Shown: positions 2,071 through 38,250, counted from the first letter of the stretch. The stretch: 64,000 bases of DNA from Escherichia coli (GCF_050920415.1 NZ_CP169309.1), one strand, 5' to 3'. Translations and numbers: made by a program. Notes: a model not told the origin generated them from the sequence alone.

Positions 2071-3576
2071 ATGCAAAACAAAAAATGGATTTTGACCTCG
2101 CTGGTAATGGCTTTTTTCGGCATCCCCATACTGGCGCAATTTTTGGCAGCGGTTATTGCCATGCTGGGGGCCGGGCTTGCCGCTATTCTTGAGGCTTGCA
2201 ATTTACTCTTTACGCCAACAATTTATCTTCTACTCAACGTCTTTATGCTGACGCTGGGGGCGATAATCCTATTTTTCTCTGGTCGCGTGTGGGCCGGTGA
2301 TAGCGCACCAGAAAACAGAGAAATAGCCGTCTGGCGGCAATGCTTTTTTCTTTTACCTGCACTGTTAACTCTGGTTGGCTGGATAATCACGCTACATCTG
2401 GCAGATTATCAATTTCGCCAAATGGGAGCAGGTTGGTTGGCAGAGCTTATGCTCCCCTGGCTGGGAGTTTTGTTAGTCTCATTAGTCGGAGGTGAGTTCT
2501 GGTGGATAGTCATTATACCCGTTGGTGCGCATATTAGTTTTTCACTGGGGTATGGCTGGCCGACCAGATATCCTTTAACCGGCACGTACGGGTTACGTTG
2601 CCGTAATTCCCTCCTGTTTATCCTTCTCATGCTTGGTTTTATCGCTGGTTATCAGGCTTATTTATATAAACAGATTAATCCCGGCGTCGGTGTGCGTGAA
2701 AATATTGATATCTGGGCCTGGCGACCCGATAAACTCAATAATCAACTGCCGCCACTGCGTGGTAAACCGCAAATTCAGTTTACACAAAACTGGCCGCGAC
2801 TCGATGGTGCTACAGCGGCGTACCCAATTTATGCTTCTGCCTTTTATGCGTTGAGCGTTATACCGGAAGATTTCCACACTTGGGAATATCTGGAGAACTC
2901 TCGTACCCCCGATGCATATAACAGGATTGTTAAAGGTGATGCCGATATTATTTTTGTGGCGCAACCTTCCGGTGGGCAGAAAAAACGCGCAGAGGAATCG
3001 GGCGTCACTTTGAACTACACTCCTTTCGCCCGTGAAGCATTCGTTTTCATCGTCAATGCGGATAACCCGGTTAATTCCCTGACTGACCAACAGGTGCGTG
3101 ACATCTTCAGTGGCGCAATTACCAACTGGCGCACGGTTGGCGGTAACGATCAGGAGATCCAGACCTGGCAACGCCCGGAAGACTCTGGCAGCCAGACAGT
3201 GATGCAATCGCAGGTCATGAAAAATGTCCGCATGATCTCGCCGCAGGAAACCGAAGTGGCAAGCATGATGGAGGGAATGATTAAAGTTGTTGCCGAATAC
3301 CGTAATACAAACAACTCAATAGGCTACACCTTCCGCTATTACGCAACACAAATGAACGCCGATAAAAATATAAAACTGCTAGCTATTAACGGTATTGCAC
3401 CGACTGCGGAAAATATTCGTAACGGCAAATATCCGTATATCGTCGATGCCTTTATGGTAACGCGGGAAAATACTACGTCAGAAACACAAAAACTGGTCGA
3501 ATGGTTTTTAACGCCGCAGGGGCAGAGTCTGGTGGAAGATGTGGGTTATGTACCGTTGCATACAACAATGAAATAA
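2071..3576 (+). CDS. Fusion protein: N-terminal polytopic membrane domain + C-terminal PstS-like (PBP_like_2) periplasmic binding domain; function unknown
   Basis: ORF 2059..3576 (505 aa); ATG at 2071 is preferred (ggaaag RBS 5 nt upstream, TATAAT at 2036-2041), 2059 is the alternative. N-terminal ~230 aa has several hydrophobic helices; C-terminal ~270 aa carries the motif ...NSLTDQQVRDIFSGAITNWRTVGG... typical of phosphate-binding-protein-like domains. Domain call from motif memory, not HMM search. Confidence 0.75.
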   Translation: MQNKKWILTSLVMAFFGIPILAQFLAAVIAMLGAGLAAILEACNLLFTPTIYLLLNVFMLTLGAIILFFSGRVWAGDSAPENREIAVWRQCFFLLPALLTLVGWIITLHLADYQFRQMGAGWLAELMLPWLGVLLVSLVGGEFWWIVIIPVGAHISFSLGYGWPTRYPLTGTYGLRCRNSLLFILLMLGFIAGYQAYLYKQINPGVGVRENIDIWAWRPDKLNNQLPPLRGKPQIQFTQNWPRLDGATAAYPIYASAFYALSVIPEDFHTWEYLENSRTPDAYNRIVKGDADIIFVAQPSGGQKKRAEESGVTLNYTPFAREAFVFIVNADNPVNSLTDQQVRDIFSGAITNWRTVGGNDQEIQTWQRPEDSGSQTVMQSQVMKNVRMISPQETEVASMMEGMIKVVAEYRNTNNSIGYTFRYYATQMNADKNIKLLAINGIAPTAENIRNGKYPYIVDAFMVTRENTTSETQKLVEWFLTPQGQSLVEDVGYVPLHTTMK

Positions 3577-3601
3577 CTTTTGAGAGAACGGAATCAGCGC
3601 G

Positions 3602-4594
3602 ATGAATAAATTCATAGGCGTTTTACTGCTAGGTGCGGTTTTACTGGCGGGATGTGTCGACCGGGAAGGGTACTATAACAGCGTCAGGGAAGAAGAAAGC
3701 CATGGACTGACGTCTCTGCGGGGGCAACCAGAATTACGTTACAGCGATGATTGGTCAAGATGGCCGAGAGTGTACGGCGCTACAGCCTTATACCCGCTGT
3801 ATGCTTCCGCGTATTATGAATTAGTACCCGAGCCAAAAGATAAGGATCGAACCTCGCTGGCCTGGCAGGCGTATGGTTTGCAACAAACCCGAACAGCTGA
3901 AGCCTACGATAGTCTGATCAAGGTTACCGCGACGGTTATTTTTGTTGCACAACCGTCGGAAGGACAGAAAAAACGTGCAGAAGAAGCAGGCGTTAAACTG
4001 AAATATACCGCTTTCGCCCGCGAAGCCTTTGTCTTTATCGTTGATATCAAAAACCCGGTTAATTCACTTAGCGAACAGCAGGTCAAAGACATTTTTAGCG
4101 GTAAAGTGAGTCGCTGGAATAAAGTGGGCGGCGGTGACGAAAGTATAAAAGTCTGGCAGCGGCCAGAAGATTCTGGAAGCCAAACGGTTATGAAGGGACT
4201 GGTTATGCAAGATACTCCAATGCTGCCAGCCAAAAAATCCACTGTTATCGATCTTATGGGCAGTTTAATTACCGAAGTCGCCGACTACCAAAACACAACA
4301 TCTTCCATTGGATACACCTTCCACTATTACGTCACGCGTATGAATGACAATATGCTCAAAATGCGCAAACAGATCAAACTGCTGGCTATAAATGGCGTTG
4401 CACCTACAGAGGAAAATATCCGTAACGGCACTTATCCGTACATAATTGATGCTTATATGGTGACGCACGAAAACCCTACGCTGGAAACGCAGAAATTCGT
4501 CGACTGGTTTTTAAGCCCGCAGGGACAGCAATTGGTAGAGGATGTGGGCTATGTGCCGATTCATGACGCATCATACGAATCATCAGTGCAATAA
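3602..4594 (+). CDS. Lipoprotein with PstS-like (PBP_like_2) binding domain; paralogue of the C-terminal domain of the upstream gene
   Basis: 330-aa ORF; N-terminal signal peptide with lipobox LLAGC; long colinear similarity to residues ~240-505 of the upstream protein (e.g. IFVAQPSEGQKKRAEEAGV / IFVAQPSGGQKKRAEESGV; WQRPEDSGSQTVM in both). Confidence 0.8.
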   Translation: MNKFIGVLLLGAVLLAGCVDREGYYNSVREEESHGLTSLRGQPELRYSDDWSRWPRVYGATALYPLYASAYYELVPEPKDKDRTSLAWQAYGLQQTRTAEAYDSLIKVTATVIFVAQPSEGQKKRAEEAGVKLKYTAFAREAFVFIVDIKNPVNSLSEQQVKDIFSGKVSRWNKVGGGDESIKVWQRPEDSGSQTVMKGLVMQDTPMLPAKKSTVIDLMGSLITEVADYQNTTSSIGYTFHYYVTRMNDNMLKMRKQIKLLAINGVAPTEENIRNGTYPYIIDAYMVTHENPTLETQKFVDWFLSPQGQQLVEDVGYVPIHDASYESSVQ

Positions 4595-5248: not shown

Positions 5249-6626
<1,378 letters not shown>

Positions 6627-8741: not shown

Positions 8742-9584
<843 letters not shown>

Positions 9585-9600
9585 TTCCAGGGATTTATAA

Positions 9601-10359
9601 ATGAAACAAACACAACGTCACAACGGTATTATTGAACTGGTTAAACAGCAGGGTTATGTCAGCACCGAAGAACTGGTGGAACACTTCTCCGTCAGTCCGC
9701 AGACTATTCGTCGTGACCTCAACGAGCTGGCGGAGCAAAACCTGATCCTGCGTCACCATGGCGGCGCGGCACTGCCTTCCAGTTCAGTTAACACGCCGTG
9801 GCACGATCGTAAGGCCACCCAGACCGAAGAAAAAGAGCGTATTGCCCGCAAAGTGGCGGAGCAAATTCCTAACGGCTCGACGCTATTTATTGATATCGGC
9901 ACCACGCCGGAAGCGGTGGCGCACGCGCTGCTTAATCACAGCAATTTGCGCATTGTGACCAACAATCTCAACGTCGCTAACACGCTGATGGTAAAAGAAG
10001 ATTTTCGCATCATTCTTGCAGGTGGCGAATTACGCAGCCGCGATGGTGGGATCATTGGCGAAGCGACGCTCGATTTTATCTCCCAGTTCCGCCTTGATTT
10101 CGGGATTCTGGGGATCAGCGGCATCGATAGCGACGGCTCGCTGCTGGAGTTCGATTACCACGAAGTTCGCACCAAACGCGCTATTATTGAAAACTCGCGC
10201 CACGTTATGCTGGTTGTCGATCACTCGAAATTTGGCCGTAATGCGATGGTCAATATGGGCAGCATCAGCATGGTCGATGCCGTCTACACCGACGCCCCGC
10301 CACCAGCGAGCGTGATGCAGGTGCTGACAGACCATCATATTCAGCTGGAGCTGTGCTGA
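9601..10359 (+). CDS. glpR: DeoR-family glycerol-3-phosphate regulon repressor
   Basis: 252-aa ORF; N-terminal HTH (...VSTEELVEHFSVSPQTIRRDLNEL...). Confidence 0.95.
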   Translation: MKQTQRHNGIIELVKQQGYVSTEELVEHFSVSPQTIRRDLNELAEQNLILRHHGGAALPSSSVNTPWHDRKATQTEEKERIARKVAEQIPNGSTLFIDIGTTPEAVAHALLNHSNLRIVTNNLNVANTLMVKEDFRIILAGGELRSRDGGIIGEATLDFISQFRLDFGILGISGIDSDGSLLEFDYHEVRTKRAIIENSRHVMLVVDHSKFGRNAMVNMGSISMVDAVYTDAPPPASVMQVLTDHHIQLELC

Positions 10360-11929
10360 TCCTGCACGGCTTCCCACGTCAGACCAAAACGCGCCAGGTA
10401 TTTGCGTAGCCGATCCGCGTCGTTGACGCTGGCTTTGCCCTGGCGCGAAACATCAAAGAGTTCACGCCCGGCAGCGGAAAGCGATTTTGCCTGACGGCAG
10501 ATAGCGATAACGTGTTCCAGTTGCAGCCGATCAAAGAGGTCGATGTTTTCCGCTTCAGCGCCCAGTAGCTGTGTAAGCACGGAAGGGCGGCTCTCCTGCC
10601 AGTTATAGCGCAGACGGTTTATCTCATCTTCTACGGTTTCAAGGGTGATACGCCCACTATCGGCAAACGTCGCCATGCGTGTGACGCTGGCAGAAAGCTC
10701 GCGAAAGTTACCGCGCCATGTTGCCTGGGGAGATGTCGCAAAGGCCAGCCAGGCGCGCCTCGCTTCGGTGTTAAAACGCACGCTGTCGCCGGTGAGTGAG
10801 GCGTGGCGCTCCACTTCATAATCCAGGTTCGGTTCAATATCTTCCTGGCGCTGGCGTAGCCCCGGCAGGGTGAAGGTCCAGAGATTGATCCGCGCGTACA
10901 GGTCTTCGCGAAATTTGCCTTCGGCAACCAGCTGACGCAAATCGCGCACCGTTCCGGCGATCAGCTGAAAATCACTGCTCACCTGGCGATCGCTACCAAA
11001 CGGGTAAAAGGTTTTCTCTTCAATGGCTTTCAGCAACATCGCCTGTTCGTCTGCGCCCAGTTCGCCAATCTCATCAAGAAACAACATGCCACCGTTGGCG
11101 CTGCGTAATAATCCTTCACGAGATTCCCGCGCCCCGGTGAACGCGCCTTTCACATGACCAAACAGCGCGGACATGGCGGTATCGCCACGCAGAGTGGCGC
11201 AGTTCACTTCCACAAACTCGCCGCTAAACTGATGCCTCGCCTGTTTTAACTCGAAGATGCGTCGTGCCAGAAACGACTTTCCCGCACCGGTTGGGCCGTT
11301 GAGCAGGATCGGCGCGCGGGATCTAATCGCCACTTTTTCGATCTGCTCAATCATGCGGTTGAAATGGGAGTTACGCGTGGCAATGCCGGATTTGAGGAAA
11401 TCGAGGGTTTGCTGGCGTTCTTCGGCAAAGCGGCTGGCAATAGCGTTATAACGGCTTAAATCGAGATCGATAATCGTCACCGCACCAGGGCTGTTGGGCT
11501 GTTCTTTTTTACGCGGTGGCGAAGATTGTATTAACCTGGCGGGCAGGTAACGCGCTTCCGCCAGCAGAAACCAGCAAATCTGCGCGACGTGGGTACCGGT
11601 GGTGATGTGAATTAAATAGTCTTCTTTATCAGGTTCGAACGCGTAACCACGGGCGAAATCATGCAGGCAGGCGTAAACCTCCTCGAAATCCCACGGGTTA
11701 TGCAGTTCAATCTCAACGCTCACCACTTCTGTTTCTGGCGAAACATTGGCGATATCGCGTTTAAGCGTTTCAAACAGCGAGCGTCGTGCAACAATTCCAG
11801 TCGATTGATGACTAACGATTCTTGCTGACATAGACAGAGTGACGGACGCCATTTCGACCATCGCTGACTGCCGCGCCCGGCATAATCCAGTACGGTGCCG
11901 ACAAAGCCAAAAGCCACTGTTTTACGCAT
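10341..11929 (-). pseudogene. rtcR: Sigma54-dependent regulator RtcR, split by a frameshift in the N-terminal CARF region
   Basis: N-terminus MRKTVAFGFVGTVLDYAGRGS... is in a 69-aa ORF (11720..11929) that stops; the rest (AAA+ motif GPTGAGKSF, C-terminal HTH) is in a different frame (10341..11861). Frame switch near 11785-11800 at a short cgct direct repeat. Confidence 0.7.
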
Positions 11930-12063
11930 CTTAGATATCCTTATAAAAGACGATATTTCATTATCGGTAAATTGGCTTCGTGGAAAATCTCCGTTTACGG
12001 ACTGGAAGATTTTATCTATTTAAAAACAATGAATTAAAAAATTAATCTGCTTATTTAATTTTC

Positions 12064-12079
12064 TGGCACGACGGTTGCA
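12064..12079 (+). promoter_or_regulatory. Sigma54 (-24/-12) promoter of rtcBA
   Basis: TGGCAC-gacgg-TTGCA, an exact match to the TGGCAC-N5-TTGCA consensus, ~40 bp upstream of the rtcB start. Confidence 0.85.
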
Positions 12080-12117
12080 ATTATCAGGACAGCAAACAAC
12101 GAAAAGAGAAAAACAAA

Positions 12118-13344
12118 ATGAATTACGAATTACTGACCACTGAAAATGCCCCGGTAAAAATGTGGACCAAAGGCGTGCCGGTAGAGGCCGATGCGCGTCA
12201 GCAACTTATTAATACGGCGAAGATGCCGTTTATTTTCAAACATATTGCGGTAATGCCGGATGTACACCTGGGTAAAGGTTCCACCATTGGTAGCGTGATC
12301 CCAACCAAAGGAGCGATTATTCCGGCGGCGGTGGGGGTAGATATCGGTTGTGGAATGAACGCACTGCGAACTGCGTTAACGGCGGCTGACCTGCCTGAAA
12401 ACCTGGCGGAGCTGCGTCAGGCGATTGAAACTGCCGTGCCGCACGGACGTTCCAATAATCGTAGCCGTCGTGATAAAGGCGCATGGGAGCATCCGCCTGT
12501 TAACGTCGATGCTAAATGGGCCGAGCTGGAAGCTGGTTATCAGTGGTTAACGCAAAAATATCCGCGTTTCCTTAACACTAATAACTATAAACATCTGGGA
12601 ACGCTGGGAACGGGTAACCACTTTATTGAAATCTGCCTTGATGAGTCGGACCAGGTGTGGATTATGCTGCACTCCGGTTCACGCGGAATTGGTAATGCCA
12701 TCGGGACTTACTTTATCGATCTGGCACAAAAAGAGATGCAGGAAACGCTTGAAACGTTGCCATCGCGTGACCTGGCGTACTTTATGGAAGGTACGGAATA
12801 CTTTGATGATTACCTGAAAGCGGTGGCCTGGGCGCAGCTTTTTGCCAGCCTTAACCGCGATGCGATGATGGAAAATGTGGTAACGGCGTTGCAGAGCGTT
12901 ACGCAGAAAACGGTAAGACAGCCACAAACGCTGGCGATGGAAGAGATCAACTGTCACCACAACTATGTGCAAAAAGAACAGCACTTTGGCGAAGAGATCT
13001 ATGTGACGCGTAAAGGCGCGGTGTCTGCGCGTGCTGGTCAATATGGAATTATTCCCGGTTCGATGGGGGCGAAAAGCTTTATTGTCCGTGGGCTGGGAAA
13101 TGAAGAGTCGTTCTGTTCGTGCAGCCACGGTGCCGGGCGGGTAATGAGCCGTACTAAAGCGAAAAAACTGTTCAGCGTGGAAGATCAAATTCGTGCCACC
13201 GCGCATGTGGAATGCCGTAAAGATGCCGAAGTGATCGACGAAATCCCGATGGCGTATAAAGATATCGACGCGGTGATGGCGGCACAAAGCGATCTGGTGG
13301 AAGTTATCTACACCCTGCGTCAGGTGGTGTGTGTAAAAGGATAA
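12118..13344 (+). CDS. rtcB: RNA-splicing ligase RtcB
   Basis: 408-aa ORF; conserved RtcB metal-binding histidines/cysteine region. Confidence 0.95.
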   Translation: MNYELLTTENAPVKMWTKGVPVEADARQQLINTAKMPFIFKHIAVMPDVHLGKGSTIGSVIPTKGAIIPAAVGVDIGCGMNALRTALTAADLPENLAELRQAIETAVPHGRSNNRSRRDKGAWEHPPVNVDAKWAELEAGYQWLTQKYPRFLNTNNYKHLGTLGTGNHFIEICLDESDQVWIMLHSGSRGIGNAIGTYFIDLAQKEMQETLETLPSRDLAYFMEGTEYFDDYLKAVAWAQLFASLNRDAMMENVVTALQSVTQKTVRQPQTLAMEEINCHHNYVQKEQHFGEEIYVTRKGAVSARAGQYGIIPGSMGAKSFIVRGLGNEESFCSCSHGAGRVMSRTKAKKLFSVEDQIRATAHVECRKDAEVIDEIPMAYKDIDAVMAAQSDLVEVIYTLRQVVCVKG

Positions 13345-14364
<1,020 letters not shown>

Positions 14365-14406
14365 TGCAGAGATGTAAGCCGGATCCGACGTATTATCCGG
14401 CTAAAC

Positions 14407-17118
<2,712 letters not shown>

Positions 17119-32839: not shown

Positions 32840-33316
32840 TTACGGTTTCACGTACTCGATAGCATTAACATACCAGCTCGCTTCCCCGGCAGGGGTATTG
32901 ACCACTGCCAGATCGCCCACTTCTTTTTTCAGCAATGCGCGGGCCATTGGGGAATCGATAGAGATGTAATCTTTACGGCCAAAAATTTCATCGTAGCCGA
33001 CAATGCGAAAACGGTGAGTCACGCCATCGTCGTTTTCAATCTCCACCCATGCGCCAAAAAAGACTTTGCCTTCCTGTTGCGGGGAGTAATCGACGATTTT
33101 GAGATTTTCCATGCATTTAGTGAGATAGCGCACGCGACGGTCGATTTCACGCAGACGCTTTTTATTATACTGATAGTCAGCATTTTCGCTGCGGTCGCCC
33201 AGACTTGCAGCCCAGGTCACTTTTTTTGTGACCTCCGGGCGCTCTTCACGCCAGAGATAATTTAGCTCTTGTTTGAGTTTTTCATACCCTTCCCGGGTAA
33301 CCAGGGGCGTTTTCAT
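32840..33316 (-). CDS. greB: Transcription elongation factor GreB
   Basis: ORF 32840..33352; ATG at 33316 (MKTPLVTREGYEKLKQEL...) gives 158 aa. Confidence 0.93.
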   Translation of the reverse strand: MKTPLVTREGYEKLKQELNYLWREERPEVTKKVTWAASLGDRSENADYQYNKKRLREIDRRVRYLTKCMENLKIVDYSPQQEGKVFFGAWVEIENDDGVTHRFRIVGYDEIFGRKDYISIDSPMARALLKKEVGDLAVVNTPAGEASWYVNAIEYVKP

Positions 33317-35772: not shown

Positions 35773-37059
35773 TTGATGCAACTTACCAACGAAGAACAAG
35801 CACAGATTGCTCGTATAAAAGAAAAAATCCCACGCATTGCCGCACTGGATCCTGAATGTAAGTTATTCGGTTCTGAAGGTTGGAAATATCAATGGCCGAA
35901 GCCTGCCAGCGAGGCGGAAATAGCTTCCTGGGAGAAAAAACATAGCGTCACTTTGCCACGGGAATATCGAATTTTTCTTCGCTATATCGCTAATGGCGGT
36001 CCGGCACATGCCTACGGTCTTGAATCTTTAGGCGGTACAGATATTTATGGCGATATAACAAAAGAAAGCCCTGTACCGCTTTATATGACGCAGCAGGATG
36101 TTGATGTGTTGAATGCTGGCCGTACAGAAGATGATGAAGAATATAGTTTTTTTGACGGCGCATTGACCATTCTCACCCTGGGATGTACTTATGATATTTG
36201 CCTGGTGGTGACGGGGCAGTATCGCGGAAGGTTAATGCTGACTGATGGTGATGAAGATTATCCGTTTGATTTTATATATGATAAAAATTTCCTCAACTGG
36301 TATGAACGCTGGCTGGACGATTTTATTGCTGGCATGAGTATGAAGGGTTTCGATAGAAGTTTGCCAGGAACGCAAATTCAACTGCGTGAGTGGTTTTTAA
36401 CTGAGAAAATCCCGGATTTACGTAGATCCATTTTATTCTCGCTATGCCGTTTTCCACAGATAGAACCCGAAACTTTTGCCCTTTGGGAACATGTTTGCCG
36501 CACAGAGAATGATAAAGAATTGTGTGAAGAGGCATTCACAAGATTACGCCAAAAAAAAGGTTCTTGTGCTGCAGATATTTTTCGACTCTATTTTACAATG
36601 CCAGGTGAATTACGTGATATTGCTATTAAAGATCTCCGTTTTGCCTGTAGAGATAGTGTGGTGAATATTGAGGATTATATTCATTCACTGTTAATAATAA
36701 TGCCTGAACTTGACGATGACACTCTATCCTCAGCTGTCTTTGCTATACGAGAAACAGAGTATAATAAATATGATACTTTTCTGCCGCTTCTCGAACGTAT
36801 CACTGATGACCGTCAGCAAACATTATTGTGGGCGATGAGTAAGGCGCCTGATTTCAATGAAAGCCGAGGATTCGTTGAGTTGGTATTACCGCTTTTTGCA
36901 TCATCAAAGATGGAGAATGTAAGGAAGGCTATTTTGTTGCTCATTGAAGTTAAAGATAATCGTATTCCACCATTGGTTGATGAAGCTGCAACTCGTTTCC
37001 CTGAACTGACCATTTTACGAGAAAACTACTATCTCAGGACGTGGGGACATAAGCCATAA
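35773..37059 (+). CDS. SMI1/KNR4 (SUKH-1)-like domain protein with C-terminal alpha-helical repeat region; immunity-protein-like; function unknown
   Basis: 428-aa ORF in a low-GC insert. N-terminal region has SUKH hallmarks: W..E.K....LP.EY..FL....NGG (ASEAEIASWEKKHSVTLPREYRIFLRYIANGG) and the distal FL.WYERWLDDFI motif. Domain call from motif memory, not HMM search. Confidence 0.7.
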   Translation: MMQLTNEEQAQIARIKEKIPRIAALDPECKLFGSEGWKYQWPKPASEAEIASWEKKHSVTLPREYRIFLRYIANGGPAHAYGLESLGGTDIYGDITKESPVPLYMTQQDVDVLNAGRTEDDEEYSFFDGALTILTLGCTYDICLVVTGQYRGRLMLTDGDEDYPFDFIYDKNFLNWYERWLDDFIAGMSMKGFDRSLPGTQIQLREWFLTEKIPDLRRSILFSLCRFPQIEPETFALWEHVCRTENDKELCEEAFTRLRQKKGSCAADIFRLYFTMPGELRDIAIKDLRFACRDSVVNIEDYIHSLLIIMPELDDDTLSSAVFAIRETEYNKYDTFLPLLERITDDRQQTLLWAMSKAPDFNESRGFVELVLPLFASSKMENVRKAILLLIEVKDNRIPPLVDEAATRFPELTILRENYYLRTWGHKP

Positions 37060-37096
37060 ATTAATGGTTCAGAAATGATCTAACGCGGAGAAAAAT

Positions 37097-37627
37097 ATGA
37101 TCAGGGAACATATTCAGCAAGCGATAAATAATAGGTTAGCATTTGATGGCCCATTCAATGTTGTTCCTGAACCTGCAAGCACTGCGTTTGATGGCCGGAT
37201 CCCGACATTGAAAAACGGTGTCTGGCAGAAGGCCAGCCCTATGTTGCAGGCGCGTTTTGCACATTGTGGACGTTGGTTAAGCGCTACACATGGAAGCTGG
37301 CTAAGTATAAGTGACATGGAAACGCTTTGGCAGGAACACATAGAAGATACGTTTCTTGATGAAATCAAAATGAATGCTGTAGCTTCAAGTGATAATTGGG
37401 ATAACCATGCCTTGGGACTATTTCGTTCTCATCGCCTGTCACTTTTTGCCGGTAGTGATTACAGTTATGAAATGGTTTTTCTCCTTTGGCTAGATAGTAC
37501 CGTTGAGCCAGAGGTCTGGGTTTATGACTGCAATGGGGAATCACGTTATAAAGATCTTAATGATTACCTGAATGCATATATTAATGATGACGTAAGCGCC
37601 TGTGAGCGCTCCTGGCGAGTAGAATGA
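37097..37627 (+). CDS. Hypothetical protein, possibly a second SUKH-like immunity-type protein
   Basis: 176-aa ORF 37 bp after the previous gene; C-terminus (EVWVYDCNGESRYKDLNDYLNAYIND) resembles SUKH C-terminal motifs; weak assignment. Confidence 0.6.
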   Translation: MIREHIQQAINNRLAFDGPFNVVPEPASTAFDGRIPTLKNGVWQKASPMLQARFAHCGRWLSATHGSWLSISDMETLWQEHIEDTFLDEIKMNAVASSDNWDNHALGLFRSHRLSLFAGSDYSYEMVFLLWLDSTVEPEVWVYDCNGESRYKDLNDYLNAYINDDVSACERSWRVE

Positions 37628-38250
37628 ATAGCCCCCCTTGCCCCTTTGATCCACAAACCGCACATTACCTCGGTACAGTGCAAATCCACTACAGCCCAAC
37701 CACCTTCAACGCTGCCGTTAAGCATTATACCTGTTACATTAAAAAGCGTTTTAAAGGGTTTAAATGGGGAATTGGAACCGCTGGCTTATTGGCTATATTG
37801 CCCATGATCCCACAATGGTTGAAACCTTCTCATGACTTTAAACTCAACGCAATCAGTACGTTAATTCTTCTATTAATGTTGCCACTCCTCTTATCAATGT
37901 TCCTGTTAATCAGCAGAAGAATTAACGATTTTAAGTCAAAAACAAAGCAAGTTACTTTTACGAAACCCGTGCGTTATGCGTTTTATTTCGAGGGGATTGT
38001 TTTTTATGAATCTCATCAGCAGGGCATACTTCGCTGGGAAGATTTGTATAGCATTGACTATGAAGAAGATTATTTGTGGCTTTTTCTGCATTTACCGAAG
38101 AGTTTTCCCAGAGAAGCGACGAAAGCGTTTTGCGATATTTTCATTCCCGCCAGCGCGATAAAAGCGCAGCCTGAACTGGATACGTTTTTTCGTGAAACAC
38201 GCCACTCGCTGGATTATCTGTTTGTCCCGTTTAATTCTGACAGAAAATAA
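37624..38250 (+). CDS. Hypothetical two-TM membrane protein (YcxB-like architecture?)
   Basis: 208-aa ORF; start overlaps the upstream stop (ATGA); two adjacent hydrophobic helices (WGIGTAGLLAILPMIPQWL, ISTLILLLMLPLLLSMFLLI) followed by a ~100-aa soluble domain. Confidence 0.6.
   Translation: MNSPPCPFDPQTAHYLGTVQIHYSPTTFNAAVKHYTCYIKKRFKGFKWGIGTAGLLAILPMIPQWLKPSHDFKLNAISTLILLLMLPLLLSMFLLISRRINDFKSKTKQVTFTKPVRYAFYFEGIVFYESHQQGILRWEDLYSIDYEEDYLWLFLHLPKSFPREATKAFCDIFIPASAIKAQPELDTFFRETRHSLDYLFVPFNSDRK

Follow-up and report, generated by a model that had tools for sequence, protein, structure and literature searches.

A 10 bp deletion splits the CARF sensor domain of the activator RtcR beside an intact rtcBA operon in Escherichia coli

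The stretch of DNA analysed here (64,000 nt in full, referred to as the window) carries glpD, glpE-glpG-glpR, rtcR on the minus strand, rtcB-rtcA on the plus strand and malT, in an order that matches K-12. The glpR gene (9601–10359) is intact and encodes 252 residues; the K-12 MG1655 copy, a known pseudogene, aligns to it with a 1 nt gap. Elsewhere in the window, a gene for a PstS-family substrate-binding protein (755–2263) has another copy after it, which a frameshifted IS3 element interrupts (2289–4593), and an IS621 (IS110-like) transposase gene (5425–6405) lies directly upstream of glpD. Between envZ and pckA (35776–38250) are an SMI1/KNR4-family gene and two hypothetical genes, with no toxin gene annotated beside them; SMI1/KNR4 proteins are often the immunity proteins of polymorphic toxin systems. 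An Rfam scan of the whole 64,000 nt returned 0 matches. Identity to K-12 is only ∼92–97.6% across the rtc locus (91.9% at the DNA level for rtcR), which places the host strain in a divergent Escherichia lineage. The RtcR product of strain M863 in public records is identical to the 506-residue product encoded here, and M863 has been placed in Escherichia clade I (PMC4182557).

The two genes of the divergent operon, rtcB (12118–13344, plus strand; RNA ligase, 408 residues) and rtcA (13348–14364, plus strand; RNA 3'-terminal phosphate cyclase, 338 residues), are intact and align without gaps to K-12, with 95.3% identity for rtcB and, for rtcA, a full-length match to NCBIfam NF003247 (766 bits against a cut-off of 333). 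A consensus scan located their sigma-54 (−24/−12) promoter, TGGCACGACGGTTGCA, at 12064–12079 on the plus strand; no other site in the window matches TGGCACG-N4-TTGCW perfectly, and the promoter is identical in K-12 and the other alleles, so that both the operon and the promoter are as the preliminary description of this DNA had reported them. Another sigma-54-like sequence, TGGCCCGCGCATTGCT, which departs from the consensus at one position, lies in or near greB (32931–32946, minus strand) and is at chance level, since 31 of 100 shuffled sequences gave at least two matches. Gene order and promoter together place rtcR divergent from a sigma-54-dependent rtcBA operon, and rtcBA is reported to depend on sigma-54 and RtcR (Genschik 1998, as cited in PMC5175333 and PMC7790460).

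The rtcR gene begins at a canonical ATG at 11929, preceded by an AAGGA Shine–Dalgarno sequence, and this start stretch does not vary among K-12 and the other alleles compared. The closest intact allele, from strain Z0117EC0005, is 98.6% identical to the rtcR of the window and differs from it by 12 substitutions across the gene and by a single gap of exactly 10 bp, in which ACGCCCGCTC has been lost. Across the lesion, GCACG-ACGCCCGCTC-ACGCTCGCTG in the reference corresponds to GCACG-ACGCTCGCTG in the window, i.e. GCACGACGCTCGCTG. The segments ACGCCCGCTC and ACGCTCGCTG form an imperfect 10 bp tandem (identical at eight of ten positions), one unit of which is missing here, and the ends of the deletion share a 4 bp microhomology, ACGC. 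The junction (11780–11785, minus strand), defined by alignment to the intact allele, the junction index and a 50-mer search, can be placed anywhere over the retained ACGC, from between 11785 and 11784 to between 11781 and 11780, at nt 145 in codon 49. The gene consequently measures 1,589 bp, as against 1,599 bp in intact alleles and 1,598–1,600 bp among the full-length matches listed in ecoli_genomes, and its reading frame is disrupted relative to functional orthologues.

The lesion itself is of an ordinary type, a microhomology frameshift, and bears the hallmark of replication slippage or of a deletion mediated by microhomology. Either process would have removed the 10 bp between the two ACGC repeats of the imperfect tandem, in a sublineage of the divergent Escherichia group, with clonal inheritance thereafter. 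The preliminary description had placed a split inside the N-terminal CARF region after about 46 codons and had considered it consistent with the slipped-strand gain or loss of a unit of a CGCT direct repeat near 11790. The split and its location hold, although the number of native codons is 51; a tandem CGCT does exist (11783–11776) and the indel is associated with a repeat, but the frame does not switch through a 4 bp CGCT unit. The alignment to a reference rtcR that it had proposed defines the indel as the 10 bp deletion with ACGC microhomology, which replaces slippage of a CGCT unit as the explanation. The same alignment disposes of the idea that the canonical start might lie downstream of the break: the ATG at 11929 is upstream of it and aligns with the start of K-12 b3422 and of all 532-residue alleles.

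Two open reading frames now cover the gene. The upstream one (11929–11720, minus strand; 69 residues, from the ORF list) retains the native start and Shine–Dalgarno sequence and consists of 51 native CARF codons (β1, α1 and β2), 18 out-of-frame codons and a TGA at 11722–11720; Asp49-Ala50-Arg51 are regenerated by the repeat. The downstream frame (11861–10341, minus strand; 506 residues, from the ORF calls) starts with 26 non-native residues that translate CARF sequence out of frame, and continues as native RtcR from Arg53 to Ser532, comprising the rest of the CARF domain, the AAA+ sigma-54 interaction domain, the lid and the C-terminal DNA-binding region. This native frame is open from a stop codon at 11924 and offers ATG codons at 11861, 11852 and 11831. 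Its 480 native codons show no further damage and one lineage-specific change, A454V, relative to both K-12 and the nearest intact allele. At 11726–11720 (minus strand) the sequence GTGGTGA encodes Val72-Val73 (GTG GTG), and the start-codon scan shows that the TGA of the 69-residue frame overlaps the second of these codons, GTG73; initiation there would yield RtcR 73–532, of 460 residues. The Pfam CARF family PF06956 (183 positions), which matches the intact allele over positions 1–183, is divided between the two frames (positions 1–56 in the 69-residue and 51–183 in the 506-residue product), and no single polypeptide contains the complete domain. The AAA+ family PF00158 is matched by residues 161–328 of the 506-residue product (E = 1.5e-50), with both the Walker A (GPTGAGKS) and GAFTGA motifs present. 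Against the RtcR model NCBIfam NF038308 the 506-residue product scores 785.4 bits (cut-off 650), over profile positions 29–529 only.

This score explains how the gene has been annotated. PGAP names 10341–11861 'DNA-binding transcriptional regulator RtcR' (WP_001355002.1, 506 residues) with no pseudogene flag, because the product exceeds the equivalog cut-off; the score accounts for the name and says nothing on whether the protein is made. Another gene caller, applied to a Logan contig of the same allele, divided the gene into products of 69 and 460 residues, the latter starting at GTG73. Automatic annotation thus hides the lesion, and its users would miss the destroyed sensor domain.

The deletion recurs in independent records. 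A junction 50-mer, built so that each 28-base seed must span the junction, matched one of 5,426 complete E. coli genomes. Over rtcR and roughly 8 kb of its surroundings the window matches NZ_CP169399.1, of E. coli strain MFDS1022581, at 100%, and its position 1 falls at about 355135 of that record. The identical junction is present in this apparent source record, in GCA_036681285.1 and in an ENA metagenome contig, and the allele recurs, with one SNP, in the Logan assembly of SRR12406470; a junction 31-mer found no match among the JGI metagenome contigs. The exact 506-residue product occurs on 36 contigs, M863 accessions among them, and is listed by the index in 54 blocks of the collection; the identical 69-residue product is also present in public records. 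The carriers sampled differ by 0–1 SNP over 6.6–7 kb at this locus, the only SNP being 11724 G to T in the SRR12406470 assembly, which turns Val72 from GTG to GTT (synonymous in the native frame) and replaces Trp by Leu in the shifted frame. Since the same junction and product are found repeatedly in independent records, the deletion is an inherited allele, rare among complete E. coli genomes. The preliminary description had considered an assembly indel as the alternative, in which case the strain would truly possess an intact rtcR. The presence of the deletion in just one complete genome of the E. coli collection speaks for such an error. The two further assemblies come from other projects (one of them a metagenome), however, and together with the Logan run and the recurrence of the exact product they rule out an assembly artefact; the loss of 10 bp at a non-homopolymer site is, moreover, atypical of sequencing error. 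An error in the sequence is hardly credible.

The rtcR–rtcB intergenic region (11930–12117), examined in a four-allele alignment, contains the ribosome-binding site of rtcR and the rtcBA promoter, and presumably also the RtcR enhancer region. Compared with the nearest strain with intact rtcR it shows 12 substitutions and one indel in 188 bp (93.1% identity), against 98.6–99.2% identity for the flanking genes. These changes cluster at ∼11960–12030 around an inverted repeat, TCCGTTTACGGA (11990–12001), with the promoter and the rtcR start region invariant; the variable stretch may correspond to the RtcR enhancer region or represent a small patch of recombination. The ENA metagenome contig (ERZ27316997 k141_134722, corresponding to 9002–14861 of the window) is a mosaic. 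Its deleted rtcR, glpR and glpG are identical to those here, with 0 mismatches in ∼2.9 kb; its rtcB resembles that of K-12 (99.8%); and rtcA and malT on the contig represent another allele, 5–7% distant from the window, with the switch at ∼12087–12136. Either genuine recombination, with its breakpoint at the promoter or the 5' end of rtcB, or chimeric assembly of the metagenome accounts for this pattern.

A sequence search for a solved structure of the RtcR CARF domain matched only AAA+ domains of other enhancer-binding proteins. We therefore describe the domain from an AlphaFold2 model of the intact allele, built from 42 diverse RtcR homologues (pLDDT 93.7). In this model, β1 (residues 3–9) is followed by two helices (residues 20–25 and 29–35), β2 (residues 43–48), a helix (residues 50–66), β3 (residues 71–76), a helix (residues 85–98), β4 (residues 106–111), a helix (residues 117–128), β5 (residues 134–140), β6 (residues 153–157) and a linker helix (residues 165–182). 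The break falls at the end of β2, and the frameshift separates β1 and β2 of the Rossmann-like sheet from the rest of the protein. All downstream products lack both strands, and the product that would start at GTG73 also lacks half of β3. Of the four CARF positions that hardly vary among the 42 homologues, three (Gly11, Asp15 and Pro29) lie in the lost segment. With β1, β2 and the best-conserved residues of the N terminus gone, the model excludes a folded CARF domain in any product. [quoted passage not shown] If the published model of RtcR applies, an RtcR that senses its ligand, or that binds RtcA or RtcB through CARF, could no longer be made, and signal-responsive control would be lost with the fold. 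Both the reality of the deletion and the destruction of the CARF sensor are, in our view, virtually certain.

A full-length RtcR might nevertheless still be produced by programmed frameshifting or transcriptional slippage, or the fragments might reassemble into a working CARF domain. One mRNA encodes both pieces, and the two frames overlap by ∼140 nt (11861–11720), anywhere within which a −1 shift would join them. The overlap, however, lacks both an X XXY YYZ heptamer and any homopolymer run of five or more, and programmed frameshifting was rejected for want of either feature in the 69-residue frame; a shift at any point other than the junction would come at the cost of native residues, and the lost 10 nt of coding sequence would not be restored in any event. 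Reassembly would require efficient translation of the second piece, which has no ribosome-binding site, and tolerance of the 18 foreign residues. Such a rescue is very improbable, and recoding, fragment complementation and artefact are remote even when pooled.

What remains to be weighed is whether the downstream frame yields an activator. We favour a null or near-null allele, with a probability of about 0.6. The downstream in-frame starts have no ribosome-binding site and would give little or no activator, so that rtcR would effectively be a pseudogene and rtcBA would lie silent behind a sigma-54 promoter without its activator. The calculated Shine–Dalgarno pairing energies are −3.5, −3.4 and −1.5 kcal/mol for the three ATG codons and +0.2 kcal/mol for GTG72 and GTG73, compared with −6.0 kcal/mol for the AAGGA of the native start, and the first two ATG codons (11861 and 11852) are located within stable local structure. 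A consensus scan of 11300–12200 found no internal sigma-70 promoters or terminators. The locus also appears to be dispensable, because ∼586 of 5,424 complete E. coli genomes (∼11%) retain no more of rtcR than its 3' quarter (24%), joined to what is left of the 3' end of rtcA; the loss of rtcR could then be an early step in losing a dispensable system. In one example of this rtc deletion allele, NZ_CP028483.1, only 10341–10724 of the window is represented; the deletion has taken rtcB, the promoter and the 5' portion of rtcR, and both remnants carry a pseudogene annotation.

Several features sit less easily with a null allele. Downstream of the lesion 480 codons remain open with one amino-acid change, and rtcBA and its promoter are intact. 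The open frame is uninformative on selection, however, because the carriers are near-identical: no lesions beyond the 10 bp are seen, and the few differences among carriers imply too little time for decay. Estimation of dN/dS on the broken gene is impossible for the same reason, and the more divergent metagenome contig has an identical rtcR. Early disruption of the CARF-coding region need not inactivate, moreover, since two Salmonella transposon insertions at rtcR nt 48 (codon 16) activated the operon (PMC7790460 and Table S1); very early CARF disruption can therefore give an active, internally started protein. To these points is added the overlap of the 69-residue stop codon with GTG73.

The allele might accordingly be read as a deregulated, constitutive activator, weak or at low level, and not as a null, a possibility that the preliminary description had raised with internal re-initiation as the route. 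Ribosomes would finish the 69-residue frame at its TGA and a fraction would re-initiate at GTG73, or translation would start at one of the three downstream ATG codons, giving an RtcR that lacks residues 1–72, or one that lacks residues 1–52 and carries a foreign leader of 16–26 residues. The CARF remnant, of 113–133 residues (53–185 or 73–185), would be unable to fold and to restrain the AAA+ domain, and the protein would oligomerize and drive rtcBA without a signal, probably at low level. A 4 nt stop/start overlap is classic for translationally coupled genes and permits termination–reinitiation without a strong Shine–Dalgarno sequence; here the frame that ends in the GTGA carries the native ribosome-binding site, and the independent gene caller chose precisely the 460-residue product. 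By sequence, the GTGA at GTG73 is the best candidate for the start of a truncated RtcR. The AAA+ domain with its GAFTGA and Walker A motifs, the lid and the C-terminal region are all preserved downstream, as are rtcBA and the promoter. There is also published precedent, in line with the preliminary description, which had mentioned the reported constitutive activity of N-terminally truncated RtcR: removal of CARF renders RtcR constitutive both in vitro and in vivo (PMC9650030, PMC5175333), and RtcR-deltaN, which lacks part of the domain, is constitutive as well (PMC7790460). Against such an activator, the restart codons have no usable Shine–Dalgarno sequence and GTG initiates weakly; in the Salmonella insertions, transcription reading outward from the transposon may have contributed, and the present allele has no such source; the half-CARF remnant may aggregate or be degraded; and the activity of enhancer-binding proteins needs oligomerization and is hence concentration-dependent. 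Nor is there any sign of selection, with one carrier among 5,426 complete genomes and near-identical carriers at the locus. On balance a deregulated activator of some kind is unlikely, while deserving serious consideration. More specifically, that the deletion has created a natural signal-independent RtcR 73–532 by reinitiation at GTGA, so that a clade I-like lineage expresses RtcB and RtcA constitutively, is somewhat more doubtful still.

The RtcR/rtcBA module is well described and the allele is already in public databases; our literature search found no paper describing natural rtcR frameshift alleles. The allele provides a natural experiment on whether losing part of CARF silences or unlocks the Rtc RNA-repair response, which has been linked to how cells survive ribosome-targeting antibiotics (PMC12606134) and DNA damage (PMC7790460). 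Were it null, as we favour, it would be a further example of a dispensable stress system in decay, beside the large rtc deletion. Were it constitutive, it would be, to our knowledge, the first natural deregulated rtc allele and a counterpart of the laboratory RtcR-deltaN, and tolerance to ribosome-targeting antibiotics or RNA-cleaving toxins could rise.

Compared with K-12 RtcR (b3422), a CARF–AAA+–HTH sigma-54 enhancer-binding protein that activates rtcBA, the window allele has the same locus, start, ribosome-binding site, promoter and AAA+ and C-terminal domains, but it has a 10 bp deletion at codons 49–52, its CARF domain is split and no 532-residue protein is encoded. If null, it would resemble the common E. 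coli rtc deletion allele in being a natural loss of RtcR-controlled RNA repair in an Escherichia lineage; that allele removes rtcB and the promoter and is found in ∼11% of complete genomes, whereas the present one loses only 10 bp and is rare. Further parallels are the engineered RtcR-deltaN, delta-NTD and delta-CARF (187–532) variants and the Salmonella nt 48 insertions, in which the N-terminal CARF is likewise lost and the AAA+ and DNA-binding parts are intact (PMC9650030, PMC5175333, PMC7790460). Those variants have engineered or transposon-supplied expression signals and most lack the whole domain, whereas the window allele is a natural frameshift that leaves a CARF remnant and has no evident ribosome-binding site for the downstream frame.
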